Part shown: positions 35,816-64,000 of the stretch, one piece after another
Numbering within the stretch: position 1 is the stretch's first letter
Layout of the letters: each line of letters opens with the position of its first letter
DNA from: Gemmatimonadota bacterium
Lineage (GTDB): Bacteria > Gemmatimonadota > Gemmatimonadetes > Palauibacterales > Palauibacteraceae
Assembly (NCBI GenBank): GCA_958295535.1
Contig: OY282356.1
Span: 5,976-69,975, forward strand
Direction: 5' to 3'
DNA length: 64,000 nt
Notes under the pieces: generated by a model
Told to the model about the DNA's origin: nothing
The model's input: the letters and a program-made list of their open reading frames with translations, nothing else
Databases searched by the model: none
Position numbers and translations under genes: made by a program

Positions 35816-35825
35816 AGTGTTGCCA

Positions 35826-48344: not shown

Positions 48345-51052
48345 CTCGTTCTCACTATCGTTATCTGTGGTTTCGATGTCTCGCCGAGAGGCAGATCCGC
48401 CGCGCGCACCGAGAGCGACATGGCCTGCGCTCCGGGTTCCGACACGAGCGAGAAGTGCTGAGCACTGGATGACGCTACGTCTATCTCCAGCGCTCTTGTT
48501 TCAACTTCCAAGGGGTGCGCGCGCAGCGGAAACGGGGCGGGAAACAGCGTGCGCGTATCCGCGTCCTGGTTCAACGATGCAAACACATCGCGGAAGTCCC
48601 ACGTTGCAACGGAGAACCTGCGCGGGAGCTCCAGATCGACCGCATCGTCCGCGGCCAGCGCCACCGAAAAGTCGGCCAGCAGGTCGTCCCACTCCAGACC
48701 CGCGACGCGTTCGATGTTCGCTATGCCCCGCGCGTAGTTCCGACCGCCACCCACTATCGACCGGAAGAAGGGTCGCTCGTCGCCATCCGTTCGATCCGCC
48801 AGCCAGCGCAGCAGAAACCAGCCGAACCCTCTCATTTGAAGTGCGCCAACGCCGCCCTGCCCGCTTGCCGCGATGGTAGGCGCCGCCGCAGTCCCGAGCA
48901 GGTAGAGGCCGAGATTGAAGAAGTTGTCGCGCTGGTAGGCGTCGAAGGATCTCGCCGCCGCCGGCGTGCCGGAAAGCTGGCTGAAGGTGTAGTTGCCGCC
49001 CGCCGCCAGTCCGGCCGAAGCAAAGCCCACCGCCTCTTCGGCCACGCTCGAAAGGGCCTCGTCGAGCCAGAGCTCCTCCACCGCGGCAAAGCCCCCGGGA
49101 GATCGAAGCGCGCGCCTCTCCGCGCTGGTCAGGTGCTGGATTTCGCGGGCCACCATGCCCAGCGTGTTCCGAAGGGTCTGTTCCTTGCCTACCGCCTCGG
49201 CCACCCTCCCGTCCGGGTCCGCGACGGCGGCGTAGATGATCTCGGCCTCGTTGCTGGCCGGACATGCTTCGGATGCGGCGTCGGATCCCCCGTCTCCACC
49301 GCGCCCGGAGGCGGCCAAGTCCAGGGGAAGGAAGAACCCGCGGGTGTCCGCCTCGTCGTTCCCGAGCCTGTTGACCTCCGACGTGAAGAGAACGACGACC
49401 GCGCCATTGCCATCTATGTCCGCGGCGCTGCCGAAGTACGATGCGACCGTTGGGGCAACCGTTCGATTCAGCTCTTCGCCGAGCGCAAGCCACTCCTCGG
49501 CGCTCGGCCCGCCCGGCGGCGCGGACATGTCCTCGGCCAAGATCAGGTGCTCCCCCTCGGCTCTGACCACCCCGCGGATCACCTTGGCCGTGTCGGTACA
49601 TGTAGCCCGCATGGCTTGGCCAAGGGCGAAGAAGTACTCGAGCGTGTCCCCGAGGACCGGGATGGAGGGCATGCGAACGGGGGCGCCATCCTGGCGTCGC
49701 TCCAGGGACACGGGGGCGATACGAGACTGCGCCAGATGATCTAACGCTTGCGAGCGGATCACCATGTTGGCGCTCGGTTGGGCGAGAGCCGCAGCCCGCA
49801 GCCGGACGTCGAAGTGCGGCGGTTCGAGGGAAGCGACGGGGCCGAACTCCGCCGCATCGCCGGGCGTGCGCGTCGCCACCGTCATGGAAAGGGGCTTTGA
49901 CGCCACCCTGCTCACGTTGCCAATCGTGATCTGGAATTCCCGCTCGCCTGCCGCCTCTTCGTCCTCGGGCGGCAGGAAGTGAACGCATTCGACCTCCGGC
50001 GAGCCGCTCAGCGTCAACGCCTCGCCCACCTCCAGGTCGACGCGCGGTTCAGCCGGGTCCAGAAGAAGAAGAATGCCGTTGCTGGCGAACCCGCCGGCGA
50101 TTACCCGAACTCCCACCTCGCGCTGCGGAAGACACGCACCGGCAAAGGCAGGCACATCGATGACGAGTTCCGTCGTCGAGGCGCTCACGACGGTGGCGGG
50201 GATGCCCTCGATTCGCACTTCGTTGTCGGCTGGCACGGGGCTGAACCCGCTGCCGAACACCTTGCCGCGCGTCCCTGCCTCCAACCGCCCCGTCTCGGCC
50301 GAGTCGAGGGCGACAGGACTGTCCAGCGACGCGAGAGCCATCCCGGTAAAGGAGATGGTGTCGGAATACACGCCACCGGTGGCAAATGCATCTACGCGGT
50401 AGCCGCCCGCCGCCGGCCCGAGAGTGAACACGGTGCGGGCCAACCCGTACGAGTCGGACGGCACAAGCCCGTTCGTCAGCGCTCCGGCGCCATCGCCGCC
50501 GCCGCCGTCTGCCACAGGATCTTCTCCGCGCATCTGCCGGAACACTATCTCTACGCCGCCGGCGGGCGTGCCCCCCGGAACGGCGGCGCGGATCTCGAAG
50601 GGCAGCGGCAGCTGGCTGCCAACCTCCGCGCGCTGGGAGTCGCCGCTTACGAGATCGAGGAGAACGGTGTCGGCGGCCTCGGCGCGGACCGAGAAGTCGA
50701 TCGGAGCCACATGGCTTGCGCTCGGGATATCCACCCGGATCGCCGCCTCGCCCGGAGTTGTCGCGGCGCGGTAGACGGACTCGGCAATTCCGGTTTGGCT
50801 CGCCACGGCGACGCCCGGCGAGAGACTCCCTCCGCCGCTCACTACCAGGAAGCGGACTGGCGTCCCCTCTACCGGGTTGCCGAGCGCGTCCTCGACCCGA
50901 ACGGCGATCGGCGGATCGGTGCTCTCGCCGGTGACGACGGTGTCCGCGAGCGCGGAGACCGCGGTCAGCTGCATCGGCGGCGATCCGATCTCGGTGCTAC
51001 CGCCGTCTCCGCACGCGCCGAGGCCCCACACAAGGACGGAGGCAGCCGACAT
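48341..51052 (-). CDS. Large secreted lipoprotein with bacterial Ig-like (Big) domains, function unknown
   Basis: Lipobox LVWGLGACGDGG at the internal ATG (51052). The track ORF extends to 51346. Ig-like repeats 'VTGESTDPPIAVRVEDALGNPVEGTPVRFLVVSGGGSL...'. No HEXXH seen. Confidence 0.5.
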   Translation of the reverse strand: MSAASVLVWGLGACGDGGSTEIGSPPMQLTAVSALADTVVTGESTDPPIAVRVEDALGNPVEGTPVRFLVVSGGGSLSPGVAVASQTGIAESVYRAATTPGEAAIRVDIPSASHVAPIDFSVRAEAADTVLLDLVSGDSQRAEVGSQLPLPFEIRAAVPGGTPAGGVEIVFRQMRGEDPVADGGGGDGAGALTNGLVPSDSYGLARTVFTLGPAAGGYRVDAFATGGVYSDTISFTGMALASLDSPVALDSAETGRLEAGTRGKVFGSGFSPVPADNEVRIEGIPATVVSASTTELVIDVPAFAGACLPQREVGVRVIAGGFASNGILLLLDPAEPRVDLEVGEALTLSGSPEVECVHFLPPEDEEAAGEREFQITIGNVSRVASKPLSMTVATRTPGDAAEFGPVASLEPPHFDVRLRAAALAQPSANMVIRSQALDHLAQSRIAPVSLERRQDGAPVRMPSIPVLGDTLEYFFALGQAMRATCTDTAKVIRGVVRAEGEHLILAEDMSAPPGGPSAEEWLALGEELNRTVAPTVASYFGSAADIDGNGAVVVLFTSEVNRLGNDEADTRGFFLPLDLAASGRGGDGGSDAASEACPASNEAEIIYAAVADPDGRVAEAVGKEQTLRNTLGMVAREIQHLTSAERRALRSPGGFAAVEELWLDEALSSVAEEAVGFASAGLAAGGNYTFSQLSGTPAAARSFDAYQRDNFFNLGLYLLGTAAAPTIAASGQGGVGALQMRGFGWFLLRWLADRTDGDERPFFRSIVGGGRNYARGIANIERVAGLEWDDLLADFSVALAADDAVDLELPRRFSVATWDFRDVFASLNQDADTRTLFPAPFPLRAHPLEVETRALEIDVASSSAQHFSLVSEPGAQAMSLSVRAADLPLGETSKPQITIVRTR

Positions 51053-51530
51053 GCGCGCCACGCCCGCCGGCCAAACCGGCCGCAACGCCCGGCGCGCGGC
51101 GCTTGTCCGCCGCCCCGCGTTCGGGAAGGGCGACGCGACGGACGCCTTCAACGGCGCCACGGCTGTCGCCGCCCCGCGTCGAGCGAACGCCGCACAGCGA
51201 GCGAACGCTCCACATCGATTCGAGTTTCTGGGTGCATCAACTTGAGTTTCTGCGTGCATACGTTTCAGGTGCTTGGCGCCACGCCTCCCGTTTCGGGTCC
51301 TCCTCCGTCCCGGCAGCATCTTTCCACCACCGAGAACAGCCAACAAACATCCGACGCTAGTCTATTCAATACAGCGGAAACAATCAAAAGGTTCGGCCTC
51401 GCACTTTTCTTGTCTCGCTTGTCTCTCAGCCCCTTTTATTGGCAACACCCTGTTGTCCCACAACGTTGTCCCGCAACACCGTCGTGTTCGCAGCGCCCAA
51501 GCGGGGGGCGGTCAAAGTCGTTAGATTGTT

Positions 51531-51913
51531 CGGCGGCGGAGGAAGAAGAGGTCGCGGACGAGCGCCAGTCGCATCGTTCGAGGAAAGTCCGGGCTCCGCA
51601 GGGCACGGTGCCGGGTAACGCCCGGGCGTCGCGAGGCGACGGAAAGCGCCGCAGAGAGCAGACCGCCGATGGCGGCTCAGGCCGCACAGGCAAGGGTGAA
51701 AGGGTGGGGTAAGAGCCCACCGCGCCTACTGGTAACAGAGGTGGCACGGCAAGCCCCGCCGGGAGCAAGGCCAAGCAGGAGCGAGCGGTTGCCCGCCGCG
51801 TTCGAGCTCCGGGTAGGCCGCATGAGGTCCCGGGAGACCGCGGGCCCAAGATAGATGACCTCGGCCTCGGGCGCGTCCCGCAGGTTGACAGAACCCGGCT
51901 TATCTTCCTCCGC
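51531..51913 (+). ncRNA. rnpB: RNase P RNA (bacterial type A)
   Basis: P4 'GAGGAAAGUCCGGGCUCC', 'GGUAACGCCCGGG', 'GGGUGAAAGGGUG', 'ACAGAACCCGGCUUA'. P1 pairing ggcggaggaagaag / cttatcttcctccgcc. Followed by a T-run. Spurious ORFs overlap it. Confidence 0.9.
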
Positions 51914-52108
51914 CCTTTTTTCTTGTTCAAAAGAGAACCGTTCAATCGACTTGATCGACGAGGATTGTTTGTTGACGCCAGCTTCACTCCTTTGGGCGAT
52001 AAGCTGCCAACCAGATCGAGACGAGACTGTCTCGTTGTGTTCGTGGCCGTGGTGGCGGCCGTGCTGGTCGGGATGTGCGCCACGGGCGCGGCTTCATGAC
52101 GGCGGCTG

Positions 52109-52303
52109 GTGACCCGCGAGATACTGGCGGAAATCGTTGCGTACGTGCTGGGTGTGGCCTGGCTGGTCTTGCTGGTCTATCTGGTTTGGATATGGATGAC
52201 CGCCACGCCACCCGAGCGCGAGATCCTGCCGAAAATCACTGCAGCCGTGCTGATCGGGCTGGCCTTTTTCGTGCTGGTGGTGCTGTTCGGGCCCTCGCTA
52301 TGA
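52109..52303 (+). CDS. Small 2-TM membrane protein, hypothetical
   Basis: 64 aa. Two clear hydrophobic helices. Confidence 0.35.
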   Translation: MTREILAEIVAYVLGVAWLVLLVYLVWIWMTATPPEREILPKITAAVLIGLAFFVLVVLFGPSL

Positions 52304-52436
52304 ACGCGACGATGGTCGTGCTGCCGGAGCGCGACGGGCGCGACCCCGAGCATGACAGCCCGGGTTCTTGAAAGACGAGTGTCATTTGAAACAGGATGCC
52401 GATGCCTGGGGGAGCTTCCGGCAGGGGCGCTTCCGG

Positions 52437-52483
52437 CGGGGGAGATTCCAGCGGGGGAGATTCCAGCGGGGGAGATTCCAGCG
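52437..52483 (+). repeat. 3x 15-nt tandem repeat GCGGGGGAGATTCCA immediately upstream of the M16 peptidase ATG (each unit contains a GGGGGAG SD-like motif)
   Basis: Seen directly. Preceded by 2x GGGNGCTTCCGGC. Confidence 0.75.
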
Positions 52484-53770
52484 ATGAGAGTGTCGCAAAC
52501 CAGCGTGGCCCTCGACTTCGAGGAACACACGCTCGACAATGGACTGAGGGTTGTTCTGCAGCCCGACTCTTCGGCGCCGCTGGTCGCCGTGCAGGTCATG
52601 TATCATGTGGGTTCCAAGAATGAACGGCCCGGCCGAACCGGCTTCGCCCACCTCTTCGAGCACCTCCTGTTCCAGGGCTCCGAGAACGTGCCGCGCGAAG
52701 GGCACTTCAGGTTCATTCAGGACGCCGGCGGCACTCTGAACGGGACGACCTGGTTCGACCGAACGAACTACTTCGAAACGGTGCCTGCGAACGAACTGGA
52801 TCTTGCTCTCTGGCTGGAGTCCGACCGCATGGGCTTCTTCAAACCGGGCATTACGCAGGAGAAGCTCGACAACCAGCGCGAAGTCGTGAAGAACGAGCGT
52901 AGGCAGTCGTACGAGAATCGACCTTACGGTCTAGCGTTAGAGACGGTGTTCGCCGAGGCGTACGACGAGGGACACCCCTACCGTCACCCCACCATCGGCT
53001 ACATGGCCGACATCGACGCCGCGGCCCTCGAAGATGTCCACGACTTCTTCGATCTCCACTACGGACCGAACAACGCCGTGCTGGTACTGGCCGGCGACTT
53101 CGAGACGGGAGCGGCGCTGGAGCGGGTCAAGGCGTGGTTCGGCGACATCCCGCCCCGCCCGGTTCCGCCCCGCCCGGTGGTGCCTGCGCCGCCTTGCCGG
53201 GGGGAGAGGCGCGCCGAGATAGCCGACAATGTTCAGGCCCCGCGGGTGTATCTCATGTTCCACTCTCCGTCCTGCAACGATCCGGGCTTCGAAACGGTGG
53301 ACACCCTCGCGTGTTTGCTTGCCGATGGGGACAGTTCGCGGCTGCAGCGGGCGCTCGTCTACGAGCAGCAGGTGGCGGCCGATGTGGATGCGTTCACATG
53401 GCCGACGGAGAACGCCGGGATGTGCTTCGTGGTCGCGACGGCCCGCCTGGGCGTCTCGCCCGATCGACTCGAGGGGGCGTTGCGCGACGTCATCGATGAA
53501 GTAAGGACGGATGGCGTCGGGGCCGGCGAGCTGCAGGGCGCTTTGAACCGCGTGCGGTACGCGCTGGTGAGCGGGCTGGCGAGCTTTGGCAGCAGGGCCG
53601 ACGCGCTGGCGCACGCGGCGGTGCTGCGAGGCGATCCTCGCTATGTGAACGATGCGCTGGGGCGCTACGCCGCGGTAAGCCGGGATGCGGTTCACGGCAT
53701 GGCGCGAACCGTCCTCGACCCGCGGCGGCTCACGGCGCTTCATGTCGTGCCGGAAGCTGGGAAATCGTGA
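52484..53770 (+). CDS. M16-family zinc peptidase (pitrilysin/insulinase-like), catalytic subunit
   Basis: Inverted zinc motif HLFEHLLFQGSEN...E. ATG 52484 preferred over track start 52352. Confidence 0.85.
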   Translation: MRVSQTSVALDFEEHTLDNGLRVVLQPDSSAPLVAVQVMYHVGSKNERPGRTGFAHLFEHLLFQGSENVPREGHFRFIQDAGGTLNGTTWFDRTNYFETVPANELDLALWLESDRMGFFKPGITQEKLDNQREVVKNERRQSYENRPYGLALETVFAEAYDEGHPYRHPTIGYMADIDAAALEDVHDFFDLHYGPNNAVLVLAGDFETGAALERVKAWFGDIPPRPVPPRPVVPAPPCRGERRAEIADNVQAPRVYLMFHSPSCNDPGFETVDTLACLLADGDSSRLQRALVYEQQVAADVDAFTWPTENAGMCFVVATARLGVSPDRLEGALRDVIDEVRTDGVGAGELQGALNRVRYALVSGLASFGSRADALAHAAVLRGDPRYVNDALGRYAAVSRDAVHGMARTVLDPRRLTALHVVPEAGKS

Positions 53771-55203
53771 AGCCGGACCGGACAGCCATGACCCCGGACC
53801 GGGCAGCCAGGACGCCAAGCCGGGCAGCCGCGACGCCAGACCCGCGAGTCGCGACGCCGGACCGGACGGTTCGCCCGCCCGCCGGGGTCGCCCGCCCGCT
53901 TGATCTGCCAACGTTCGAGGGCGGTCGGCTAGCGAACGGTCTCCGCTACGAATTTGCCCGGCGCCCCGGCATCCCGGAGGTGTCTCTCCGGCTCATCATG
54001 GAGTGCGGGGCGGGCGCGGAACCGGCGGCCCATGCTGGCGTGGCGGCGCTCGCCGCCCGCCTTCTCGTATCCGGCACGCCGGGGCGGGATGCCATGGATG
54101 TGGCGAGGCGGCTGGATCGCCTCGGAGCGGTCCACGCCGCCTCGGCCGGCTACTCCGTCGGCGCGGTCGCGATGGAGTGCCTGTCCGAAGTGTTCGACGA
54201 GGCGCTCGACTTTCTCGCGGATACGACGCTCCGATCCGACTTCCCGGAGAGCGAAGTCGTCCGCCTCAGAGACGAGCGCCTGGACGAGATAAAGCGCCGG
54301 CGCGACGAACCGGCGGCCGTAGCCGACCTCGCCCTGATCGGAGAGCTCTACGGCGAGGGACTGTACGGCCGTCCGGTGGCGGGCACCGAGGAAACGGTGT
54401 CGCAGCTTGCCCGAGAGACGGTCTGCGCCTTTCACGAGGCGCGATACCGTCCCGGTGGCGCCCTGCTCGTAATATGCGGCGATGTGTCGTCCGAGCGGAT
54501 CGGGCCGGCGGTCGAGGCCCGCTTCGAAGGCTGGACGGGACGGTGCGGACGCGTCGAACCGCCTCCGACGCCCGAGGCGCCCGGCGGCGGCGTCATCCTG
54601 ATCGACCGACCCGGAAGCCCTCAGTCGGAAGTGCGGGTCGGGACCGTCGGAGTCCCGTTCGGCACCGACGATCACTATGCGATAATAGTCGCCAACGCCA
54701 TCCTGGGCGGACTGTTCCACTCGCGCATCAACCTCAATCTCCGCGAGGACAAAGGATGGACGTACGGGGCGCGGTCAGACTTCAGATTCCGCCGGGGGGC
54801 AGGTCCGTTCGTGGCTCGCACTGCCGTCGAGACGGCGGTGACGGGCCCGGCCTTCGAAGAGATACTGAAGGAGATCGACATGCTGAGCCGGGAGCTCGTG
54901 AGCAAGGACGAACTGCAGCTGGTCCGCAACGCCCTGACTCTCTCCCTGCCGCGCCAATTCGAGACGGCGCCTCATGTCTGCGCGAAGAGAAGCCGGCAGC
55001 GCATCTTCGGCTTGCCCGAAGATTACTGGGAGGAGTACACCGCCCGGATCGTGTCCGTAACCCCCGAGCAGATTAGAGCGACGTGCCGGAAGTACCTGGG
55101 TCCCGACCGCCTGACGCTGCTTGCGGTCGGAGATGCGGAGAAGGCAGCGCCGGCGCTCGGGAAGCTGGGCGCCGTGGATATCCGACCCTTGGGGGAGGTT
55201 TAG
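53767..55203 (+). CDS. M16-family peptidase, second (non-catalytic, HxxEH-lacking) subunit
   Basis: M16 fold without an intact HxxEH. GTGA overlap with the upstream M16 gene. Confidence 0.8.
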   Translation: MKPDRTAMTPDRAARTPSRAAATPDPRVATPDRTVRPPAGVARPLDLPTFEGGRLANGLRYEFARRPGIPEVSLRLIMECGAGAEPAAHAGVAALAARLLVSGTPGRDAMDVARRLDRLGAVHAASAGYSVGAVAMECLSEVFDEALDFLADTTLRSDFPESEVVRLRDERLDEIKRRRDEPAAVADLALIGELYGEGLYGRPVAGTEETVSQLARETVCAFHEARYRPGGALLVICGDVSSERIGPAVEARFEGWTGRCGRVEPPPTPEAPGGGVILIDRPGSPQSEVRVGTVGVPFGTDDHYAIIVANAILGGLFHSRINLNLREDKGWTYGARSDFRFRRGAGPFVARTAVETAVTGPAFEEILKEIDMLSRELVSKDELQLVRNALTLSLPRQFETAPHVCAKRSRQRIFGLPEDYWEEYTARIVSVTPEQIRATCRKYLGPDRLTLLAVGDAEKAAPALGKLGAVDIRPLGEV

Positions 55204-55209
55204 CCGGAG

Positions 55210-55938
55210 ATGGACGATCCGGCGATGGATGATCCGGCGATGGCCGATCCGTCGGAAGGCGGCGGCAGAGCGGTCGGCGGCGGCAGCTCATCCCCGGCTG
55301 ACAGCGGCGGAGGCGGGCGCGCTCGGGAGATGGCCGATCGAGCGGTCGGCGGCGGCAGCTCCGCCGGGCGCATGGGCGGCGCGCGGGCGTATCGGGGCCT
55401 GACGATAGACATCGATGTGGATACGGTCCGCTTTCCGGATGGCTCGGTTGGCGAACTCGAGATGGTTCGACACCCGGGCGCCGCATTGGTCGTTCCAATA
55501 GAGGCGGCGGGCGACGGCCAACCAATTGTCACTCTCGTGCGTCAATATAGATATGCGGCGGGCGGATTCATCTGGGAAGCTCCGGCAGGCAAGCTGTCTC
55601 CGGGAGAGTCCCCGGAAGTCTGCGCTCGGCGCGAGTTGGAGGAGGAGACGGGCTTGCGCGCGCTCAGCCTCGAGCGTTTGGGGTCGATCTACACGACGCC
55701 GGGTTTCACGGATGAGGTCATTCATCTGTTCATGGCTTTGGAGGTGGAGGCGGGCACAGCCAACCCGGGGGCGAGCGAGTTCATCGAGGTGCACCGCCTG
55801 ACCCTCGGCGAGACGCAGGACATGATGGCCACCGGCGAGATAGTCGACGCCAAGACGATCTGCGGGCTGACGCTTTCTGCGAGGCGTCTGGAACGAAAAG
55901 GCTGGCAGAGCGCGGGAGGGGCCAAGGGCGAGAGGTAG
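55210..55938 (+). CDS. Nudix hydrolase (ADP-ribose pyrophosphatase-like)
   Basis: Nudix box 'GKLSPGESPEVCARRELEEETGL'. The N-terminal ~55 aa are low-complexity (MDDPA repeats); an internal start (~55372) is possible. Confidence 0.8.
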   Translation: MDDPAMDDPAMADPSEGGGRAVGGGSSSPADSGGGGRAREMADRAVGGGSSAGRMGGARAYRGLTIDIDVDTVRFPDGSVGELEMVRHPGAALVVPIEAAGDGQPIVTLVRQYRYAAGGFIWEAPAGKLSPGESPEVCARRELEEETGLRALSLERLGSIYTTPGFTDEVIHLFMALEVEAGTANPGASEFIEVHRLTLGETQDMMATGEIVDAKTICGLTLSARRLERKGWQSAGGAKGER

Positions 55939-56019
55939 CGGCGGCCGGGCGAGGAGAGGCCGAGGCCGGGGGCGAGGGAGCTGGCGTTACTTCGCTGGCA
56001 GAACAGGCGTCTAGAAGAC

Positions 56020-56676
56020 ATGAAGACGAATCGGAAGCTCGGTCTAGCCGTGCAAGATAACGCTGCCGCCTTGCTGGAACCCGTCGGGTACAGCCAGCTG
56101 CGGCATCTCGAAGATGCCGAGCTCGTCAAGCGCTACCTCGCGGGCCAGCGCTACGCGTTCACCGAGTTGGCCAACCGGTACCAGGACCGCCTGCTGAACT
56201 TCATCTACCGGATGATCGGCGACCGGGACCGAGCGGAAGATTTGGCGCAGGAGACCTTCGTGCGCGTGTACCGGCACCTGCACCGCTACGATTCGGGCCG
56301 CAAGTTTTCAACCTGGATACTGACGATCGCCAGCAACCTGTCGAAGAACGAACTGCGAAACCGCGCCCGGAATCCGCTGGTGCTCTTCCAGGCGATGAGG
56401 GCCAGCTGGCAAGCCGATAACCGTCCTATCGAGTTCGAAGACAAGCGCAACCTGCCTGACGATCTCTTCCGGAAGCGGCGCCTCCAGGAACAGGTCGAGA
56501 TCGCCGTCACGAAGCTGCCGGAACACCACAGAGTCGTTTTCGTTCTTCGTGAAATGGAAGGGAAGACTTACGACGAGATATCGCAGATCACGGGCGTCAC
56601 TCTCGGCACGGTCAAGTCTCGTCTCAATCGAGCGCGCAACCGCTTCGCCCAGATCATCCTTCCGATGCTGGACTAG
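56020..56676 (+). CDS. ECF-family RNA polymerase sigma factor (sigma-70 regions 2 and 4)
   Basis: 'DLAQETFVRVYRHL..Y', 'FSTWILTIASN', region 4 'YDEISQITGVTLGTVKSRLNRAR'. Confidence 0.9.
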   Translation: MKTNRKLGLAVQDNAAALLEPVGYSQLRHLEDAELVKRYLAGQRYAFTELANRYQDRLLNFIYRMIGDRDRAEDLAQETFVRVYRHLHRYDSGRKFSTWILTIASNLSKNELRNRARNPLVLFQAMRASWQADNRPIEFEDKRNLPDDLFRKRRLQEQVEIAVTKLPEHHRVVFVLREMEGKTYDEISQITGVTLGTVKSRLNRARNRFAQIILPMLD

Positions 56677-56748
56677 CTCGCTGCCATAGCTGGTAGTCGA
56701 TCGAGCGCGCAACCGCTCGCCCAGATCATCCTTCCGATGCTGGACTAG
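56627..56748 (+). repeat. Direct duplication of the last ~50 bp of the ECF sigma gene (copy 2 is 22 nt downstream of copy 1, 1 indel)
   Basis: atcgagcgcgcaaccgct(t)cgcccagatcatccttccgatgctggactagc x2. Confidence 0.8.
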
Positions 56749-56837
56749 CCCGCAGCCAACGCCAAGAAGCTAGCCCGAAGCTCGACCAGCGGCCTCCTGC
56801 CCGCACTTGCCGACCCGGTCCTGCCAGCTTGGCCGGA

Positions 56838-57398
56838 TCACGCCGACGGCCAGAGCAATCCGAAGATGGCGCCTGTGAGCAGGGCGTACGCGTAGCCGTC
56901 GATCGCATGCTTCACCGCGACCCGCCGGGGCAGGCCGAACCAGATGCTTTCCTGTACGCCGACTAGTCCGTATGCCAGGAATGCGGCTGGTCCGGTGCCG
57001 CCGAACACCGCCAGGAAGGGCGCGCCCGGCTCGAGCGCTCCCGACGCGAGGTAGGCAACCAGGGCGCTGACGATCAGGAAGAAAAGGAACATCTTGATCA
57101 AGGCGGGCCCCATGTTGAGCACAGCGTTCGGCCTCTGGACGCGCACTATGCCCACCGGGCCGGTCCGCACCTTGTCCAGGTACTCCTTGCGGTTCCGGTC
57201 CCCCCACTTGCCAAAGGGGAAGTAGTACATGCCGGGCTTGCCCGCGCACCTTCGAATCGCATCCATCAAGTCGTCCTCGTTGTCCGGCGGCGCGAAGTCC
57301 CGCTTGTGATGCGGCATTACCGTCCACACGAGCGAGCTCAGGAGGAAGACGCCGGCGGCAGAGACGAGGATCGGCAGCCAGAGGGATTCGGTTGTCAT
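56838..57398 (-). CDS. Hypothetical polytopic membrane protein
   Basis: 186 aa with ~4 hydrophobic helices. Antisense to the flanking sigma/anti-sigma genes. Confidence 0.45.
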   Translation of the reverse strand: MTTESLWLPILVSAAGVFLLSSLVWTVMPHHKRDFAPPDNEDDLMDAIRRCAGKPGMYYFPFGKWGDRNRKEYLDKVRTGPVGIVRVQRPNAVLNMGPALIKMFLFFLIVSALVAYLASGALEPGAPFLAVFGGTGPAAFLAYGLVGVQESIWFGLPRRVAVKHAIDGYAYALLTGAIFGLLWPSA

Positions 57399-57588
57399 CG
57401 GCCTGCTCCTTGTTCAGAGGCGATCAGTTGGCTGGCTTCGAGGGCGATCGGTTAGCTTGGCGATCGGGCAGTTTCTCAGTACGTCCGCATCGCGGGGAAG
57501 GTTCTGTCCTAGGAACTCCGTGGCGAACCGAGTACCGCATATCACTGCGTGCCAACACCATACTAGAAGAGGAGGCAGCTCGGTGAAC

Positions 57589-58254
57589 ATGCAAACCAAT
57601 ATGGTGATTGCCGTAAGCGGCGTATTCATCTTCATAGTGGTTCGGGCTTTGATTGCCGGGCAACCCGCGCCAGAACCGATGATGGTTCAAGCTGTCCACG
57701 GTCAGATGCCCGGTAGAGGAGTAGGAAGCAGGGAAGAAAAGGGTCCGGCTATGCGTGTCGAGCCAGTGGTATCGATAGCTCCGGCGCTCAATTGGACGCT
57801 GGACCGCACTGTTCACACCCGATTCTATGTCTTCCTCACGGATGCGGACGGTACGCCTGTCTCGCCGCCAGGAGGCCATGATGGCAGGATCAGGGGATGT
57901 AACGCGTTTGACGTCATAGCAACCGACGACAGCTGCATGTCCCACATAGAAGGGCTACGCGCCCAGATGACTTTCAGCCGCCCAACATACCAATACGGCG
58001 GACAGTCCTACCCCGCGTTCGATTCGTGGTGGGAGACTAACCCCGCAGAGGTATACGACGACTTGCCCGAGGGCGCTACGGCAGTCTTTGAGACGTGGAA
58101 CGCGCTTGGCTACGGTTACCCAGTTACGTTTCTCTACGAGTGGAACGACGACGCGTTCCATCAGAACTGGGAGTGTTCTGTAACCACCGAAGACGGCAGC
58201 TATAATGCACGTTCTGGGGATCGTCTGGTTGCCACTTGTGAAGACTGGTCTTAG
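57589..58254 (+). CDS. Hypothetical exported protein in a lower-GC (~55%) segment
   Basis: Strong RBS AGAAGAGGAGG 12 nt upstream of ATG 57589. N-terminal signal/TM helix. Trp/Tyr-rich, no known motif. Confidence 0.5.
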   Translation: MQTNMVIAVSGVFIFIVVRALIAGQPAPEPMMVQAVHGQMPGRGVGSREEKGPAMRVEPVVSIAPALNWTLDRTVHTRFYVFLTDADGTPVSPPGGHDGRIRGCNAFDVIATDDSCMSHIEGLRAQMTFSRPTYQYGGQSYPAFDSWWETNPAEVYDDLPEGATAVFETWNALGYGYPVTFLYEWNDDAFHQNWECSVTTEDGSYNARSGDRLVATCEDWS

Positions 58255-58463
58255 ATGGCAGACGACCACGATAATAGAGTCGCAGCGGCGACTGGCCGTG
58301 CGCGGGGCGGTCCAGTGCCGCAACTCCGGTTGCGAAGTGAACCTCGCTCACGGGCGCGAGGGGGTGGAACCACGGGGAGTCCATAGAGTAATATTCCCCT
58401 GGTTGGACTCGCGGAACGCTGGAGTCGATTTTCACGGAAAACGGAGGATGCAATCGCACTAGG

Positions 58464-59048
58464 ATGGTTTGCACCGACTTCCTGAAGCGATACACGGAGT
58501 ATCAAGACGGGCTTCTGGCTCCAGAAGAGCGCGTACGGTTCGACGAGCATCTCGCTAGCTGCGAGGGTTGCAAGCGGTACCATACCGCGCTCGTACGCGG
58601 ACTCGCCCACTGTAGAGAATTGCCGCGCGTCGGCGCCTCGCCGGACTTCCTTCCGCGTCTTCAACACCGTCTGTACCATATCGACGAGGCTGGAAAGAGA
58701 CGCCTGCGGACGCACCTGGACAAGGTGGCCATGGCTGCCGCGGCGGCAGCTCTGGTAGCCGCGATCTGGCTTCCCCTCCGCGGACCGGATGGCAACGAGG
58801 CGATGTTGATGCCGGTTGCCGGAGATGCGCCTGCGGCGGGTACGGCGGTGCAGCCGAGTCTCTTCGACAGCGGTCCCTTCTTGCCGGGTCGGCTACTGGT
58901 GCCGTTCGCCCCGGAGATGCAAGATGAGGGCGGACTGTTTCCCTCCTCGTACGGCAAGACGATGTACGAGATGACGGCAGCGACGGCGACCGACTCCGCT
59001 CCCTCGCCAGTGGTGCGGCTTACCAGCCAGACAGACGAGGCTCGCTGA
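58464..59048 (+). CDS. Zinc-binding anti-sigma factor (ZAS, HxxxCxxC) with one TM helix
   Basis: 'CTDFLKRYTEYQDGLL..EERVRFDEHLASCEGCKRY' putative zinc-finger anti-sigma motif, then TM 'AMAAAAAALVAAIWLPL'. Confidence 0.7.
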   Translation: MVCTDFLKRYTEYQDGLLAPEERVRFDEHLASCEGCKRYHTALVRGLAHCRELPRVGASPDFLPRLQHRLYHIDEAGKRRLRTHLDKVAMAAAAAALVAAIWLPLRGPDGNEAMLMPVAGDAPAAGTAVQPSLFDSGPFLPGRLLVPFAPEMQDEGGLFPSSYGKTMYEMTAATATDSAPSPVVRLTSQTDEAR

Positions 59049-59075
59049 CAGCTCACGCTCCCCCGCCGTAGAGCT

Positions 59076-60083
59076 TTGAGCGGTTCTACCGACCCGCGGC
59101 TGCGGCGCGCCCTGGCAAAGGGGAATCCTGGCGGCGGCTGGTTTCTCCATGGGGACGCAGCCCGCCTGCGGGACGAGGCGGCTCGCGCGCTGGTAGACAG
59201 CGTCCTCGAACCGGCCACGCGCGACTTCAACTTCCAAGAGTTGCAGGCCGAGGATGTAGTCGGCGACGAGCTCGAGTACGCGCTGCGCACGCCGCCCATG
59301 ATGGCTGGGCACCGGGCGATCCTGGTGCGCGATGCGGAGCGTCTCGGCAACAAGGCGCGCGCGGTTCTGCAGAAGGCGGTGGCTGCGCCGGCTTCCGACA
59401 TCGTGCTCGTGATAACCGCCACGATTCCCAGGGGTTCGCGGGCGGCCTTCTACCGCCACCTTAAATCGAAGTGCCGGGCGCTGGAATGGAAGACTCCGCG
59501 CCCTTCGGAAATACCTGGCTGGATAAGGGAGCGCGCTCGCCACAGGTGGAGAATGGAGCTGTCGCCGGCATCGGCCCAATGGATCGCCGGTGCGGTCGGG
59601 GCGGACCTTTCGAGGATCGAAGCCGAGCTCGAAAAGCTGTCGACACTGTCCCCGGACGAGAGGGACGAAGCTTCCATCTCCGCGCTCGTGCCGAGAACCA
59701 GACGGATAGATCGGTGGGCGTGGCTCGATCTCGTGGCTGCGCGAGAGTATGTCCGCGCCTTGCGCGAGTTGGACGATGTGCTCACAACTGAACGTGGCAT
59801 CGGTCTCGTCGCGGGGCTCCTGGAGCATCACCTGCTCATAGGTCTGGCGCTGGAAACCGGGCAGCGCGGCTTGGGGGCGTTCATGTCGGAGACGGGGCGC
59901 GGATACCTTTCCTGGAAGGCGAGAATCTACGCGAGACAGGCGAAGGCATGGACGGTGACGGAGATTGACCGGGCGCTCCGGGCGCTGCGCCGGGCGGACC
60001 GCCACCTCAAGTCCGGCGTGCGCGACAAGGCGGCCATGACGGAGTTGCTGCTGTCGCTGGGAGCGATCGGGAAGACCGCGTGA
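59076..60083 (+). CDS. holA: DNA polymerase III delta subunit
   Basis: Clamp-loader delta fold: 'FLHGDAARLRDEA...', '...AILVRDAERL', C-terminal helical domain. Confidence 0.65.
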   Translation: MSGSTDPRLRRALAKGNPGGGWFLHGDAARLRDEAARALVDSVLEPATRDFNFQELQAEDVVGDELEYALRTPPMMAGHRAILVRDAERLGNKARAVLQKAVAAPASDIVLVITATIPRGSRAAFYRHLKSKCRALEWKTPRPSEIPGWIRERARHRWRMELSPASAQWIAGAVGADLSRIEAELEKLSTLSPDERDEASISALVPRTRRIDRWAWLDLVAAREYVRALRELDDVLTTERGIGLVAGLLEHHLLIGLALETGQRGLGAFMSETGRGYLSWKARIYARQAKAWTVTEIDRALRALRRADRHLKSGVRDKAAMTELLLSLGAIGKTA

Positions 60084-60892
60084 AACGGATACTGGCCTGG
60101 GGGATGCTCTTCGTGCTCCTGCCGCTCTCCGCCGAGGGCGCCGTGGCGGCGGCGGCGCAGGAGGAATCCCTGGTCGGCGGGGAGGCCGTTGGCGCGCTCG
60201 ATCGGTACGCTTCGCAAATTCGGTCCGGGAACACCGCCGGACTTGCCGGCGAGCTCGAGAGGTGGCTTGCGGGAGCGGCCGGGGAATCGCCCGAACGACT
60301 GGGACATGCTCGATACATGAGGGCGCTGCTCATGGCCGACCCCGACTCGGCCAGAGTCGCGCTCCTCGAAGTCGCTCTGGAGGGGAGGTCGTCATACGGC
60401 GCACGCGCCTGGATCCGGCTGGCCCAGCTGGATATCATGTCGGATGAACCGGTCCGCGCCGTAGCGAGCCTCGAACGGTTGCGCGCCGACTACCCGGGCA
60501 GCGCCGCCGCCAGCGCTTCGCGGTATTGGACGGCCCGGGCATTCGAGGACCAGGGCATGCTGAACGAGGCGTGCGACAGCTACATGCAGGCGGCCTATGG
60601 TGCGCGCAACGCCGGCGATGACATCCGGGCTCTCGCCGTGGCCGCCTCGGAGGAGTGCGGCGGCGCTGCGCCTCTCGTGTCCATCCAGGTGGGCGCGTTC
60701 TCGTCTGCCGGGGCGGCGCGCGAGGCTTTGTCGCAGCTGGAGGAGCGAGGATTCTCGGGGCGCGTGTTCGAAGCGGGCGGGCTCTACCGGCTGCGCGTGG
60801 GCCGCTTCGCCAACCCGGAGGCGGTGCGCCGCCTCGCGCGCCGCCTCGAGGATGCCGGTTTCTCCGCCATCGTAGTGGCCGCCGAGTCATGA
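60080..60892 (+). CDS. SPOR-domain (peptidoglycan-binding) protein with TPR-like region
   Basis: Signal peptide. C-terminal 'VSIQVGAFSSAGAAREALSQLEERGFSGRVFEAGGLYRLRVGRFANPEAVRRLARRLEDAGF' SPOR domain. ATGA overlaps on both sides. Confidence 0.7.
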   Translation: MKRILAWGMLFVLLPLSAEGAVAAAAQEESLVGGEAVGALDRYASQIRSGNTAGLAGELERWLAGAAGESPERLGHARYMRALLMADPDSARVALLEVALEGRSSYGARAWIRLAQLDIMSDEPVRAVASLERLRADYPGSAAASASRYWTARAFEDQGMLNEACDSYMQAAYGARNAGDDIRALAVAASEECGGAAPLVSIQVGAFSSAGAAREALSQLEERGFSGRVFEAGGLYRLRVGRFANPEAVRRLARRLEDAGFSAIVVAAES

Positions 60893-63570
60893 CCGCTCCG
60901 ACCGCGCGCCGACCCGCGAAGGCCAACGCGAAAACCAACCTGACGCCCCTGTTGCAGCAGTACCTGGATATCAAGGCCCGCCACCTGGATTCGCTGCTCC
61001 TGTTTCGGGTCGGAGACTTCTACGAGATGTTCTACGAGGACGCCGAAGAGGGGAGCAAGCTGCTCGGCCTGACCCTCACGGCGCGCAAGAACGGCGGCAA
61101 GCGTCACGTCCCGCTCGCCGGCATACCGGTGAAGGCGCTCGACGAACATGTGTCGCGCCTCCTCGAAATGGGGCAGCGCGTAGCGATCTGCGAGCAGCTC
61201 GAAGATCCCGCGCAGGCGGATGGCATTGTGCAGCGGGACGTCGTCGAGGTCATAACCCCCGGCACGGTCCTCGAAGACCGGCTGCTCTCCGCGAAGCTCA
61301 ACAACTATGTCGTCGCCGTCGCCGGCCGGGGCCCCTTCGGAGTCGCGGTCGTCGATCTGTCCACTGGCCAGTTCGAGGTGACGGCGACGCCCGGCGGAGC
61401 CGCCCTTGGCGACGAACTCAAGCGGCTCGACCCGGCCGAGGTCGTCGTCCCGGAGGAGATGCAGCTGCCGGATGGCGCCTGGCACCTGACCCGGCGGCCG
61501 GAGTGGCACTTCGACGCCTCGCTGGGCGAAGAACGCCTCCGCGAGTGGTTCGGCGTGAAATCTACCCGCGGTTTCGGTCTCGTCTACGATCGCGACGGGT
61601 TGCTCATCGCGGCGGGCGGCGCGCTGCTCCGATATCTGGAGGACATCCGGCCCATGGGAATCGGCCACCTGCGCCCCCCGCACGTCGACCGTGCCGGGCG
61701 CGTCATGTATCTGGACGAGATGACGCGCCGGAATCTCGAAATCGTGGAGCCGCTGCGACCGGGGGAGGGATCGTCGCTGCTGGCCGTTCTCGACCGCACC
61801 TTGACACCGATGGGCGCGAGGCTGCTCAGGAGGCGCCTGCTGCGTCCCCTCGTCGTCGCGAGCGAGATCACGGACCGGCTGGACGCCGTGCAGGAGCTCG
61901 TGGACCACGCCGAACTTCGCGGGAAAGTCCGTGACCAGCTCAAGCGCATCCGCGACTTGGAGAGGATTGCGGTCCGCATCTCGGCGGGGCGCGCCTCGCC
62001 TCGCGAGCTGCTCGGCCTCGCCACCTCCATCGAAGCTCTCCCCGGATTGGCGGCGGCGATCTCCAGCGTCGAGTCCGGACGCTTCGCGGAGCTCCGCCGC
62101 GCCTTCGACACGCTCGAGGATGTGGCGGAGCGGATCACGGCGGCGCTAGACCCGGAAGCGCCATACGTCTTGAAGGACGGAGGGGTTATCCGCGCCGGCT
62201 TCTCGGCCCCGCTGGACGCGCTGAGGGGCCAGCGGGGCGACGCGGTCCACTTCATCGCGGGCATGGAGCTCCGCGAGCGCGACCGGACCGGCATCGACAC
62301 TCTCAAGATCGGCTACAACAAGGTGTTCGGGTACTACCTGGAAGTCTCGAAGTCGAAGCTTGGCCTCGTGCCGGACGACTGGACGCGCAGACAGACCCTC
62401 ACGAACGCCGAACGCTACCTCACCTCCGAATTGAAAGAGTGGGAGTTGAAGGCGCTGGGCGCCGCCGACCGGATCATCGAGCTCGAGACCCGGCTTTTCC
62501 AGGAAGTCCGCGAGAGCATCTCGGCCGAGGTCGGGCGAGTGCAGGCGGCCGCCGCGAGAGTGGCGGAGATAGACTTCCTCGCGTGCCTGTCGGAGGTCGC
62601 ATCCGCCGAGGGCTACGCGAGGCCGCAGCTGGCCGACGAGATCGTGTTCGATGTCAAGTCGGGCCGTCACCCGGTGGTGGAAAACACGATGGCCCGGGAA
62701 CGGTTCATCCCGAACGACATGCGGCTCGACCACGACTGCCGGGTCATGATAGTCACGGGTCCCAACATGGCCGGGAAGTCCACCGTGTTGCGCCAGGCGG
62801 GACTCGTCGCGCTGATGGCCCATATGGGATCGTTCGTGCCGGCTCGCCAGGCGCGCATCGGCGTGTGCGATCGCATATTCACCCGCGTCGGCGCCAGCGA
62901 CAACTTGGCCGCGGGGATGAGCACCTTCATGGTCGAGATGACGGAGACGGCCACGATTCTGCACGGGGCGACGGACCGGTCGCTTGTTCTTCTGGACGAG
63001 ATCGGGCGCGGCACGTCCACCTACGACGGGGTGTCGATCGCATGGGCCGTCACCGAGCGGCTGCACGAAGTTGGCGCCCGCACGGTGTTCGCCACGCACT
63101 ACCACGAACTTGTGGGTCTGGCCGAGTCGCTCGAACGGGCGGCGCCCTTCAACGTCGCGGTGCGCGAGACGGGGCGCGGCATCACCTTTCTGTACAACCT
63201 CGAACCAGGGGGAACGAACCGTTCGTACGGTGTGCACGTAGCCCGTCTGGCGGGTCTGCCGGCGGGCGTCGTCGATCGCGCCGCCGACATACTCGGCTTC
63301 CTGGAGAGCGGACCGCGGGGAGCCGGCAGCCGCGCCGCCGGGATCGCGGGCTTCGACGCGGACCAGCTGTCGCTCTTCGCGGCTGCCGGGTTCCCCGGCG
63401 GAGACGCCCCGCCGGCTCCCCGCGCCCAAGAGGCTTCGGCGGACGCCAAGGCGGCCCTGGAGCTGCGTAGCAGGCTGGAGCAGCTCGATGTCGATCACCT
63501 CACGCCAGTCGGCGCGCTGAACACTCTAGCCGAGTGGAAAGCCAGCTACGGCGAGGGCGGCTCGCAGTGA
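60889..63570 (+). CDS. mutS: DNA mismatch repair protein MutS
   Basis: N-terminal mismatch-binding domain 'TPLLQQYLDIKARH...FYEMFYEDAEE', Walker A 'GPNMAGKST', 'STFMVEMTE', 'DEIGRGTSTYDG'. ATG 60889 preferred over track start 60655. Confidence 0.93.
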   Translation: MTAPTARRPAKANAKTNLTPLLQQYLDIKARHLDSLLLFRVGDFYEMFYEDAEEGSKLLGLTLTARKNGGKRHVPLAGIPVKALDEHVSRLLEMGQRVAICEQLEDPAQADGIVQRDVVEVITPGTVLEDRLLSAKLNNYVVAVAGRGPFGVAVVDLSTGQFEVTATPGGAALGDELKRLDPAEVVVPEEMQLPDGAWHLTRRPEWHFDASLGEERLREWFGVKSTRGFGLVYDRDGLLIAAGGALLRYLEDIRPMGIGHLRPPHVDRAGRVMYLDEMTRRNLEIVEPLRPGEGSSLLAVLDRTLTPMGARLLRRRLLRPLVVASEITDRLDAVQELVDHAELRGKVRDQLKRIRDLERIAVRISAGRASPRELLGLATSIEALPGLAAAISSVESGRFAELRRAFDTLEDVAERITAALDPEAPYVLKDGGVIRAGFSAPLDALRGQRGDAVHFIAGMELRERDRTGIDTLKIGYNKVFGYYLEVSKSKLGLVPDDWTRRQTLTNAERYLTSELKEWELKALGAADRIIELETRLFQEVRESISAEVGRVQAAAARVAEIDFLACLSEVASAEGYARPQLADEIVFDVKSGRHPVVENTMARERFIPNDMRLDHDCRVMIVTGPNMAGKSTVLRQAGLVALMAHMGSFVPARQARIGVCDRIFTRVGASDNLAAGMSTFMVEMTETATILHGATDRSLVLLDEIGRGTSTYDGVSIAWAVTERLHEVGARTVFATHYHELVGLAESLERAAPFNVAVRETGRGITFLYNLEPGGTNRSYGVHVARLAGLPAGVVDRAADILGFLESGPRGAGSRAAGIAGFDADQLSLFAAAGFPGGDAPPAPRAQEASADAKAALELRSRLEQLDVDHLTPVGALNTLAEWKASYGEGGSQ

Positions 63571-63687
63571 AGGTCGCGGAAACGCGCGGCTTCGGGGCTG
63601 TCCGGCCTCGGCGCACGAGGGCTGTCCGGCCCCGGCGCAAGCTCCGCGCGGGGCCGGCGCGCCGGGCACAGGGCGAAGGCGCGCGCG

Positions 63688-64000
63688 ATGACTGAGAGCC
63701 GGGTCCGGGTCGGCGTTCTTTTCGGAGGCGAATCTGCCGAGCACGAAGTCTCGCTCGAGTCGGCGCGCAACGTGATCAAGGCGATCGACCGCGACAGGTA
63801 CGAAGTCGTCGCGATCGGCATAGACCGGCAGGGCCGCTGGTACCGAGCGGACGAGCGAAGCTTCCTGGCGCGGAGTTCGAACTACCGGGAAGGCTACTCC
63901 AAACCCGCCGGCGAGCCCGCTCTCGCCGTCGCGCCCGGCCAGGGCGTCAACCGCCTCTCGCTCGACGTCGTCTTCCCGGTGCTGCACGGTCCGCGCGGGG
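63688..64000 (+). CDS. ddl: D-alanine--D-alanine ligase, N-terminal part (3'-truncated by window end)
   Basis: 'RVGVLFGGESAEHEVSLESARNVIKAID...YEVVAIGIDRQGRW' is the typical Ddl N-terminus. No stop codon before the window end. Confidence 0.75.
   Translation, partial: MTESRVRVGVLFGGESAEHEVSLESARNVIKAIDRDRYEVVAIGIDRQGRWYRADERSFLARSSNYREGYSKPAGEPALAVAPGQGVNRLSLDVVFPVLHGPRG

Follow-up and report, generated by a model that had tools for sequence, protein, structure and literature searches.

Why does an ECF sigma factor gene stand about 1.8 kb away from its own anti-sigma factor gene, with an antisense gene lying in the gap? Zinc-finger anti-sigma factors encoded at position +1 have been described for ECF groups (Casas-Pastor et al. 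2021, PMC7826278). The preliminary description of this locus, which lies in a 64,000-nt stretch of Gemmatimonadota DNA (the window), offered either a foreign cassette inserted into a sigma/anti-sigma operon or an unusual four-gene signalling module. The explanation favoured here, with a probability of roughly three in four, is that a derived, composite insertion broke up an ancestral two-gene operon, at a point between the stop codon of the sigma gene and the ancestral intergenic region.

The sigma/anti-sigma pair and its ancestral order

The plus-strand gene at 56020-56676 encodes an ECF (group 4) sigma-70 family sigma factor of 218 aa. Pfam matched Sigma70_r2 at residues 50-117 (1.6e-20) and r4_2 at residues 162-208 (2.8e-15), so that of the sigma-70 regions the protein has only 2 and 4, as expected from the size and architecture of ECF factors. 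The TIGR02937 sigma70-ECF model gave 101.4 bits against a cut-off of 42.9, and the orthologues in syntenic loci are 62-80% identical. The PDB sequence search returned Bacillus subtilis SigW (5wuq_A) as the top solved relative (E 7.8e-27). However, the protein is not a SigW orthologue, because every equivalog model for a named orthologue group (SigW, RpoE, SigM and others) scored far under its cut-off, and that of SigW reached 135.9 bits against 209. The second gene, at 58464-59048 on the plus strand, encodes a ZAS-type zinc-finger single-pass anti-sigma factor of 194 aa. It matches the Pfam family zf-HC2 (8.9e-11, 42.1 bits against a cut-off of 22.2) and has the motif C3...H29-x3-C33-x2-C36, which supplies the N-terminal H-x3-C-x2-C signature of ZAS proteins. 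A single hydrophobic segment covers residues 85-107, and RsiW (5wuq_C) was the sole PDB sequence match (E 1.1e-3). The orthologous anti-sigma proteins of relatives have 191-196 aa, and their genes lie directly 3' of sigma. Judged by sequence, the pair is a standard, intact ECF sigma/ZAS anti-sigma couple of the SigW-RsiW type.

The arrangement of the two genes is different. A ZAS gene is expected directly downstream of its sigma gene and in one transcript with it, whereas here about 1787-1788 nt, with an antisense gene inside, separate the sigma stop codon from the anti-sigma start. An ECF sigma factor with a distant HxxxCxxC anti-sigma at 58464-59048 had been named in the preliminary description, and the profiles, the motif and the gap of ~1.8 kb all bear it out. 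Among solved structures, SigW-RsiW of B. subtilis (PDB 5WUQ) is closest in sequence to both proteins; there an ECF sigma factor is paired with a zinc-binding anti-sigma that crosses the membrane once. The anti-sigma of the window resembles RsiW in its N-terminal Hx3Cx2C domain, one predicted transmembrane segment and a putative extracytoplasmic tail. The orthologous loci of the pair also share with SigW-RsiW the anti-sigma gene at position +1, but in the window the genes are 1.8 kb apart with an antisense gene between them. Likewise, the orthologues follow the typical ECF architecture (PMC7826278) with the anti-sigma directly downstream, whereas in the window and its sister strain lineage-specific insertions have moved the anti-sigma to position +3 or +2.

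Seven orthologous loci with the same flanks (M16 peptidases and NUDIX, then holA, SPOR and MutS) were compared. The sigma and anti-sigma genes are adjacent in all of them, with 46-158 nt between the two. In L086-L090 the order is M16-M16-NUDIX-sigma-antisigma-holA-SPOR-MutS with a spacing of 46-91 nt, and the identities to the window proteins are 73-80% for sigma and 44-54% for anti-sigma. In L006 and L007, where sigma is 62% identical, a short zf-HC2 ORF lies between sigma and holA. An anti-sigma match was also found 5-156 nt 3' of sigma in nine loci of Poribacteria. In the window, the tightly packed genes for holA (DNA pol III delta), the SPOR-domain protein and mutS (59076-63570, plus strand) served as the synteny anchor. 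The flanking housekeeping genes show 48-74% identity to their nearest outside relatives. The four-gene set and order of the window recurred in none of the seven orthologous loci. The 1.8-kb spacer is therefore derived and does not represent an ancestral four-gene module, since the pair is adjacent in every orthologous locus. The comparison with close relatives, which had been recommended as a check, found the genes side by side wherever the insert is absent (7/7). This supports the view that the two genes were adjacent ancestrally and were later separated by inserted DNA. The insertion is known from two strains, that of the window and its sister L001, with 98.2% and 99.3% identity to each other across the two flanks of a variable segment. 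Exact-protein look-ups for a third strain carrying it gave the window's genome and L001 only, and an exact 25-mer of the sigma gene end had no match in JGI metagenomes.

Two unlike pieces in the inserted DNA

The first gene of the insert (56838-57398, minus strand) encodes a conserved membrane protein of 186 aa. All of its 938 homologues, in Gemmatimonadota and Longimicrobiales, are unnamed or annotated as hypothetical. The AF2 model (pLDDT 93.4) contains several long helices, in agreement with the antisense polytopic membrane protein that had been proposed at this place. A Foldseek comparison with the PDB gave no match with E below 1.8, and Pfam, NCBIfam and PHROG gave no match. The family is thus widespread and structurally confident, and it is uncharacterised. 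The GC content of the gene is 0.649 and its GC3 0.861, typical of the window (mean GC 0.661). Its identity to the nearest outside homologues, 59-65%, falls in the same range as that of the flanking housekeeping genes. In relatives, the homologues occupy other genomic contexts: no sigma or anti-sigma gene was near the family in any of 84 other loci, and a search for a conserved neighbour found none. No remnants of native flanks were seen around the relocated copy, and homology to the other copies ends at the limits of the coding sequence. By these signs, the membrane gene is compositionally native and appears relocated. It is probably the one relocated copy, and less likely a second paralogue or a gene acquired from a related donor, as no second match from either strain's contig occurred among the best 120 of the 938 homologues. 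The gene is common to the window strain and L001, with 9 DNA differences and 3 amino-acid differences between the strains. Since 6 of the 9 substitutions appear synonymous, purifying selection seems to act on the gene.

The second piece is a strain-specific segment of 822 bp (57511-58332, plus strand), in place of which L001 has 87 bp of ~17-nt tandem repeats. Its GC content of 0.574 belongs to the lowest 0.6% of 822-bp windows. According to the gene caller, composition and AF2, it carries a plus-strand gene (57583-58254) for an exported or membrane-anchored, Cys-containing, Trp/Tyr-rich and beta-rich ORFan of 223 aa. The gene caller places the start at GTG 57583, and a start at ATG 57589 would give 221 aa. 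With GAGGAGG located 7-13 nt upstream of the start, one N-terminal hydrophobic segment, 7 Trp, 9 Tyr and 4 Cys, the exported Trp/Tyr-rich protein with a strong RBS that was first noted at 57589-58254 is confirmed. The GC3 of the gene is 0.625. A word-indexed search with the protein recovered only itself. An exhaustive HMMER search of 1.84 billion representatives added one real but weak homologue, P0149 (E 1.3e-4 library-wide, 2e-15 pairwise), whose gene has a GC3 of 0.638 and lies on a contig of 55.6% GC. Another candidate from that search, P0150, was rejected as a low-complexity false match. Nothing was found in Pfam, NCBIfam, PHROGs, the PDB sequence profile search or IMG/VR. The AF2 model, built from a 2-sequence alignment, is all-beta with low confidence (pLDDT 44.8). 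The homology and structure search once suggested for the 221-aa protein thus yielded a single weak homologue and a low-confidence model. A GC-rich hairpin predicted by RNA folding (58285-58321, plus strand) stands 30 nt past the stop codon, inside the segment, and it is not a canonical intrinsic terminator because it has no T-run.

The exported-protein gene is absent from L001, whose anti-sigma is identical. The 822-bp segment is strain-specific and foreign-like in composition. The window's strain could have gained the 822-bp form, or L001 could have lost it and acquired the 87 bp instead. Recombinational import might show as more SNPs beside the indel, but the counts there did not make a convincing case (4 differences in 110 nt on the left and 2 in 130 nt on the right).

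These data refine the GC contrast reported earlier, ~55% in the spacer against ~68% around it. Low GC is confined to ~57400-58450 (0.55-0.59), the right half of the insert, and the contrast holds there but not for the membrane gene. The sigma gene itself has a GC content of 0.60, which is an amino-acid effect, as its GC2 is 0.365 while its GC3 is 0.80. The insert is composite rather than a uniform cassette, because the membrane gene is native and present in both strains and only the 822-bp piece is atypical and strain-variable. Of the foreign cassette originally suggested, inserted DNA that split the pair remains, but not one uniform low-GC block.

A functional four-gene signalling module, in which the membrane and exported proteins would work with the sigma/anti-sigma pair as its sensory partners, would fit the location of both proteins in the envelope or outside the cytoplasm, like the C-terminal part of the anti-sigma. 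The apparent purifying selection on the membrane gene would also agree with it. However, the arrangement is missing from the seven orthologous loci, the membrane family has no sigma/anti-sigma neighbour in 84 of 84 loci, and the membrane gene lies on the opposite strand. Moreover, a strain with 98-99% identity and an identical anti-sigma lacks the exported-protein gene. We therefore consider the module refuted, and give it hardly any credence.

Tandem duplication of the sigma gene end and a proposed order of events

Self-alignment identified a tandem duplication at the left edge of the insert, on the plus strand. The first copy (56624-56696) consists of the final 53 nt of sigma with the stop codon and ~20 nt beyond. 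The second copy (56697-56769) begins 20 nt after the sigma stop and forms a non-coding pseudo-3'-end, the core of which (56697-56758) is 95% identical to copy 1. The cores, 56624-56686 and 56697-56758, measure 63 and 62 nt and differ by 2 substitutions and a 1-nt deletion in copy 2. The copies stand head-to-tail with a period of 72/73 nt, far beyond chance (blastn E 4e-23). Therefore, the duplication of the last ~50 bp of the sigma gene stated in the preliminary description is real, with its extent corrected to 63/62 nt and its spacing to 20 nt after the stop. Copy 2 is also present in L001 with the same diagnostic differences. It is followed by short degenerate units of 22-25 nt derived from the gene end (CTAGCCCGC...; 56745-56792, plus strand), of which L001 has one 22-nt unit more. 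Other indels between the window and L001, of 15 and 18 nt, are likewise whole repeat units. Three 16-nt direct repeats (GGCGATCGGTTAGCTT-like; 57419-57474), also common to L001, occupy the divergent intergenic region. The genome is about tenfold enriched for tandem repeats, with 32 arrays in the window against 1-5 in Markov controls.

The head-to-tail copies and a unit number that differs between close strains, by the 22-nt unit, characterise a slippage array. The duplication and the repeat units are thus probably by-products of replication slippage or template switching rather than the scar of a recombinase. They resemble slippage minisatellites in their head-to-tail 72/73-nt and 22-25-nt units, their strain-variable number and the array-rich genome. 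On the other hand, the unit here comes from a protein-coding gene, whose 3' end and stop codon it comprises, and this yields a non-coding pseudo-gene-end.

It had been proposed that the duplicated gene end reflects gene-end reconstitution or a recombination scar. Such a site-specific integration scar (attL/attR, the gene-end reconstitution of an integrative element, or an integron-type cassette) could be recognised in a duplicate that starts 20 nt past the stop, at the left junction of the insert. It could also be recognised in the imperfect 12-13-nt direct repeats with the shared 7-mer AACTCCG near the ends of the 822-bp segment. However, both gene-end copies lie head-to-tail on the same side of the insert, in a strain-variable array, and bracket nothing; no direct repeats flank the insert. 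Neither 56677-58463 nor the rest of the window contains a further copy of the gene end. The ORF list and Pfam revealed no recombinase, integrase or transposase in the insert, and Pfam detected no integrase among eight neighbouring proteins. By sequence inspection, no attC-like GTTRRRY/RYYYAAC core pair was found at the ends of the 822-bp segment. The terminal direct repeat was not significant, as 3.7% of random 822-bp segments of the window share a terminal 7-mer by chance. L001 retains no copy of the repeat. An integration scar is therefore very improbable. An integron gene cassette was specifically rejected, given that there is neither an attC pair nor an integrase among the tested neighbours and that the exported-protein gene has its own RBS.

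In the favoured explanation, the composite insertion would have arisen in two layers. The first layer, found in both strains, would be the conserved Gemmatimonadota membrane gene, relocated with its orientation reversed and with little more than the coding sequence itself. The junction would also have acquired the 72/73-nt tandem duplication across the sigma stop, followed by the shorter slippage-type gene-end units. A possible temporal link between the duplication and the insertion is suggested by their co-occurrence in this lineage. The second layer, variable between strains, would be the 822-bp self-contained unit of RBS, ORF and hairpin, with foreign composition and a secreted ORFan, and it would abut the retained ancestral intergenic region.

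Alternatively, one block of ~1.66 kb with both genes may have entered at once, after which the exported-protein gene disappeared from L001 and tandem-repeat expansion filled part of the gap. On its right side, the strain-variable segment ends where the whole insert does (58332/58333), beside the retained ancestral intergenic region. The 87 bp of L001 are built of the same kind of ~17-nt units as the common left flank, and slippage could produce them. However, the composition contrast between the two genes is sharp (GC3 0.861 for the membrane gene against 0.625 for the exported one), 87 bp of unrelated sequence would not remain after a simple deletion, and the 822-bp piece is self-contained with its own RBS and hairpin. 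We regard this course of events as unlikely.

The retained intergenic region and possible consequences of the split

The region directly upstream of the anti-sigma gene (58342-58463, plus strand) aligns with the sigma/anti-sigma intergenic region of L086. The ancestral intergenic region has thus been kept intact. It contains a hairpin CCTCGC-N8-GCGAGG (58342-58361, plus strand), a promoter-like element GGAAC-N17-GTAATAT (58366-58392, plus strand) and an RBS. The element occurs once in the window against 0.11 expected, and L001 and L086 have it at the corresponding position. It is absent from L087 and L089, where the intergenic regions have only 46 nt. A consensus scan found no sigma-70-type promoter, GGAAC-N17-GTAATAT also failing, and terminators were no commoner than in shuffled sequence. 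Rfam gave no match at E <= 1, and folding gave z-scores from -0.01 to -1.16 for the repeat and intergenic regions.

Co-transcription of sigma and anti-sigma across the antisense gene would no longer be possible. The anti-sigma gene and holA-SPOR-mutS are now presumably driven by the candidate promoter GGAAC-N17-GTAATAT, possibly with read-through from the new gene. We propose that the split was tolerated because these genes are transcribed from the kept promoter-like element. It is also conceivable, but quite improbable, that the ECF regulon took in the membrane protein and, for the window's strain, the secreted ORFan as well, or that these proteins act on the anti-sigma at its extracytoplasmic tail, with sigma and anti-sigma on separate promoters. 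In either case, the insertion would be a strain-specific input or output of an otherwise conserved envelope-stress switch.

The split pair is a real but fairly ordinary instance of genome plasticity rather than a signalling module of a new kind. Its value is modest, and the current understanding of ECF signalling is unchanged. Nevertheless, it is a clean and comparatively dated case of a sigma/anti-sigma operon that was physically split with both genes intact. This natural variant can be used to ask how far co-transcription matters for sigma/anti-sigma stoichiometry. The alternation of 822 and 87 bp between 98-99% identical flanks, the longer form being atypical and carrying an ORFan, resembles strain-variable genomic islets. 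In contrast to these, the segment is very small (one gene), has no mobility gene and lies within a regulatory operon. It represents a flexible islet of one gene, for a secreted ORFan, and the uncultured Gemmatimonadota lineage that carries it is close to Candidatus Palauibacter, a genus associated with sponges.

Sigma and anti-sigma genes and their arrangement in relatives

The ECF-type sigma factor is encoded at 56020-56676 on the plus strand (Sigma70_r2 1.6e-20, r4_2 2.8e-15). Its TIGR02937 score exceeds the cut-off of that model, and all of the named equivalogs (SigW, RpoE etc.) were under their own cut-offs. The gene of the zf-HC2 anti-sigma factor (58464-59048, plus strand, 8.9e-11) follows after a gap of 1787 nt. 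Its product contains C3 and H29-x3-C33-x2-C36 and only one hydrophobic segment, residues 85-107. The holA gene starts 27 nt past the anti-sigma gene and is followed by overlapping SPOR-protein and mutS genes. A second contig encoding exactly the same anti-sigma protein, L001 from a sister strain (~3.05 Mb, ENA metagenome assembly), carries a sigma factor of 99.5% identity. Judged from their sequences, both regulators are intact. The closest PDB sequence relatives of the pair are SigW-RsiW-type ECF/ZAS systems, and the pair is predicted to work in the manner of these systems.

Five loci (L086-L090) were reached through homologues of the anti-sigma factor. The gene order M16-M16-NUDIX-sigma-antisigma-holA-SPOR-MutS was found in all five, with a sigma/anti-sigma spacing of 46-91 nt; the sigma factors are 73-80% and the anti-sigma factors 44-54% identical to those of the window. 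Two Gemmatimonadales MAG loci, L006 and L007, have the order NUDIX-sigma-short zf-HC2 ORF-holA (sigma 62% identical), and in nine loci of Poribacteria (sigma ~40% identical) an anti-sigma match lies 5-156 nt downstream. Since sigma and anti-sigma are adjacent in all of the orthologous loci, the comparison indicates that adjacency is the ancestral state and that the 1.8-kb spacer is a derived trait of the lineage to which the window and L001 belong. The preliminary description had offered an insertion into the pair or a four-gene signalling module. The check proposed there was this comparison with relatives, and the adjacency supports the insertion and refutes an ancestral module. As a general rule, a zinc-finger anti-sigma gene is located at position +1 (PMC7826278). 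The pair fits this rule, and the window deviates from it solely through secondary insertions.

In the Gemmatimonadales relatives (L006 4585-4854, L007 6693-6968), the zf-HC2 ORF that follows the sigma orthologue encodes only ~72-90 aa without a transmembrane segment, against 191-196 aa and one transmembrane segment in the Palauibacter-like lineage, to which the window belongs. By sequence comparison, the membrane and extracytoplasmic part of the anti-sigma factor would have been either gained or lost between the lineages. Separately, a TonB_C-domain gene of ~140 aa lies between mutS and ddl in three loci (L086 12049-12471, L087 12088-12522, L089 12097-12528). It is absent from L001 (15107-15225), where the mutS-ddl gap is 117 nt; the window stops short of this interval.

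Composite nature of the inserted DNA

The inserted DNA begins at the sigma stop codon (56677) and reaches ~58332. Its right end was placed there by the homology of ~58342-58463, just 5' of the anti-sigma gene, to the L086 sequence between sigma and anti-sigma. As described previously, it holds an antisense membrane-protein gene and an exported-protein gene. The proposed insertion was correct in outline; however, the insert is composite and its foreign look is confined to one half. None of the features that define integrative elements, integron cassettes or conserved multi-gene modules was found. The mean GC of the window is 0.661. The low GC noted between the pair holds for the exported-protein gene (GC 0.564, GC3 0.625), but not for the membrane gene, which is typical of the window (GC 0.649, GC3 0.861). 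The sigma gene has a GC of 0.60 because of its low GC2 (0.365; GC3 0.80). Further low-GC stretches at ~6250-8540, 26800-27330 and 41790-42450 (GC under 0.60 in 822-bp windows, lowest value 0.555 near 42276) may be additional foreign islets; all of them lie outside the part covered by L001.

The sister strain separates the two halves. L001 aligns with window 47721-57510 at 98.2% and with 58333-64000 at 99.3%. The 822 bp between them (57511-58332), containing the entire exported-protein gene, form the right end of the insert and have no counterpart in L001, where 87 bp of ~17-nt tandem units stand instead. Either a gain in the window's strain or a loss in L001 may account for this difference.

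The membrane protein (186 aa, 56838-57398, minus strand) is also present in L001 with 98.4% amino-acid identity. Its large family counts 938 detectable members in Gemmatimonadota and Longimicrobiales, none of which has a name. The nearest relatives outside (59-65% identity) have other, unrelated gene neighbourhoods, and the similarity to those copies does not extend past the coding sequence. No conserved neighbour of the family was found, and none of 84 loci with a family member had a sigma/anti-sigma relative within 4-6 kb. Because its GC3 is native and six of its nine substitutions against L001 are apparently synonymous, the membrane gene looks like the lineage's own, relocated and still functional. 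AF2 modelled the protein with very high confidence (pLDDT 93.4), and the model gave no PDB fold match; no model for the family was found in Pfam, NCBIfam or PHROG. This uncharacterised family, restricted to Gemmatimonadota, may deserve description.

The gene of the exported protein (221 or 223 aa, from 57589 or 57583 to 58254, plus strand) is preceded by GAGGAGG. The protein has a single hydrophobic segment, at the N-terminus, and contains 4 Cys, 7 Trp and 9 Tyr. By database comparison it is an ORFan. A search of 1.84 billion representatives gave a single real homologue, P0149 (E 1.3e-4 library-wide, 2e-15 pairwise), with which it has in common the N-terminal anchor, the four cysteines and sequence motifs, for example ADGTPV and PEGxTAV. 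The P0149 gene has a GC3 of 0.638 and lies on a contig of 55.6% GC. The match of both values to the exported-protein gene points to a donor in a lower-GC lineage. A GC-rich hairpin (58285-58321) follows the stop codon within the 822-bp segment. The contig of P0149 (L091, 1.3 kb) begins with Nextera adapter sequence at positions 1-25 (AGATGTGTATAAGAGACAG). The product of the second gene on this contig is lipoprotein-like, with a Big_2 domain and a poly-proline linker.

Gene-end duplication and tandem repeats

The reported duplication of the sigma 3' end was confirmed (56624-56686 and 56697-56758; period 72/73 nt, blastn E 4e-23), with two substitutions and a 1-nt deletion between the copies. 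These stand head to tail with nothing bracketed between them, which excludes attL/attR sites or a target-site duplication flanking the insert. Decaying 22-25-nt units follow, starting again at the stop-codon CTAG. L001 has the duplication with identical diagnostic differences and one extra 22-nt unit derived from the gene end. The duplication is absent from relatives without the insertion, so the two are linked by lineage.

The window contains 32 tandem arrays compared with 1-5 in Markov-1 controls, a roughly tenfold enrichment, and the density in relatives is similar. In the flanking 9.8 kb, the largest indels between the window and L001 each amount to a whole repeat unit (15 nt at 52436, 18 nt at 55258, 22 nt at 56754), the first two being arrays off by exactly one unit; three indels of 1-4 nt were found besides. 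In such a repeat-prone genome the gene-end duplication is an ordinary tandem repeat, and the most economical reading is that the junction of the insertion underwent slippage or template switching. The repeats gave no significant RNA structure and no Rfam family match.

Other arrays include 14186-14562 (108 nt x3.3), 35822-36027 (70 nt x2.9), 43269-43623, 52408-52483, 53777-53842 and 55204-55251. Several arrays are intergenic or coincide with the start of a gene, and those at 53777 and 55204 encode repetitive extensions at the N-terminus of the M16 peptidase and of the NUDIX ORF. Upstream of the membrane gene, the divergent intergenic region has three 16-nt units with the palindrome CGATCG (57419-57474); related units, CTTGGCG-N-GACGG, follow on in the 87 bp specific to L001 (L001 9691-9869). 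Both could be operator-like sites or mere slippage products.

Retained intergenic region

The region homologous to the L086 intergenic region contains a small GC hairpin and then GGAAC-N17/18-GTAATA(T/G). The window has a single occurrence of this motif, with 0.11 expected, and L001 and L086 have it at the orthologous site. GGAAC-N17-GTAATAT may resemble SigW-type promoters (TGAAAC-N16-CGTA). Co-transcription of sigma and anti-sigma would now mean read-through of the antisense membrane gene. Because the ancestral intergenic region and this element are fully retained, we suggest that the anti-sigma, holA, SPOR-protein and mutS genes had their own promoter beforehand, with the putative ECF-like GGAAC-N17-GTAATAT element, and would still use it. 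Such a promoter would account for the tolerance of the split.
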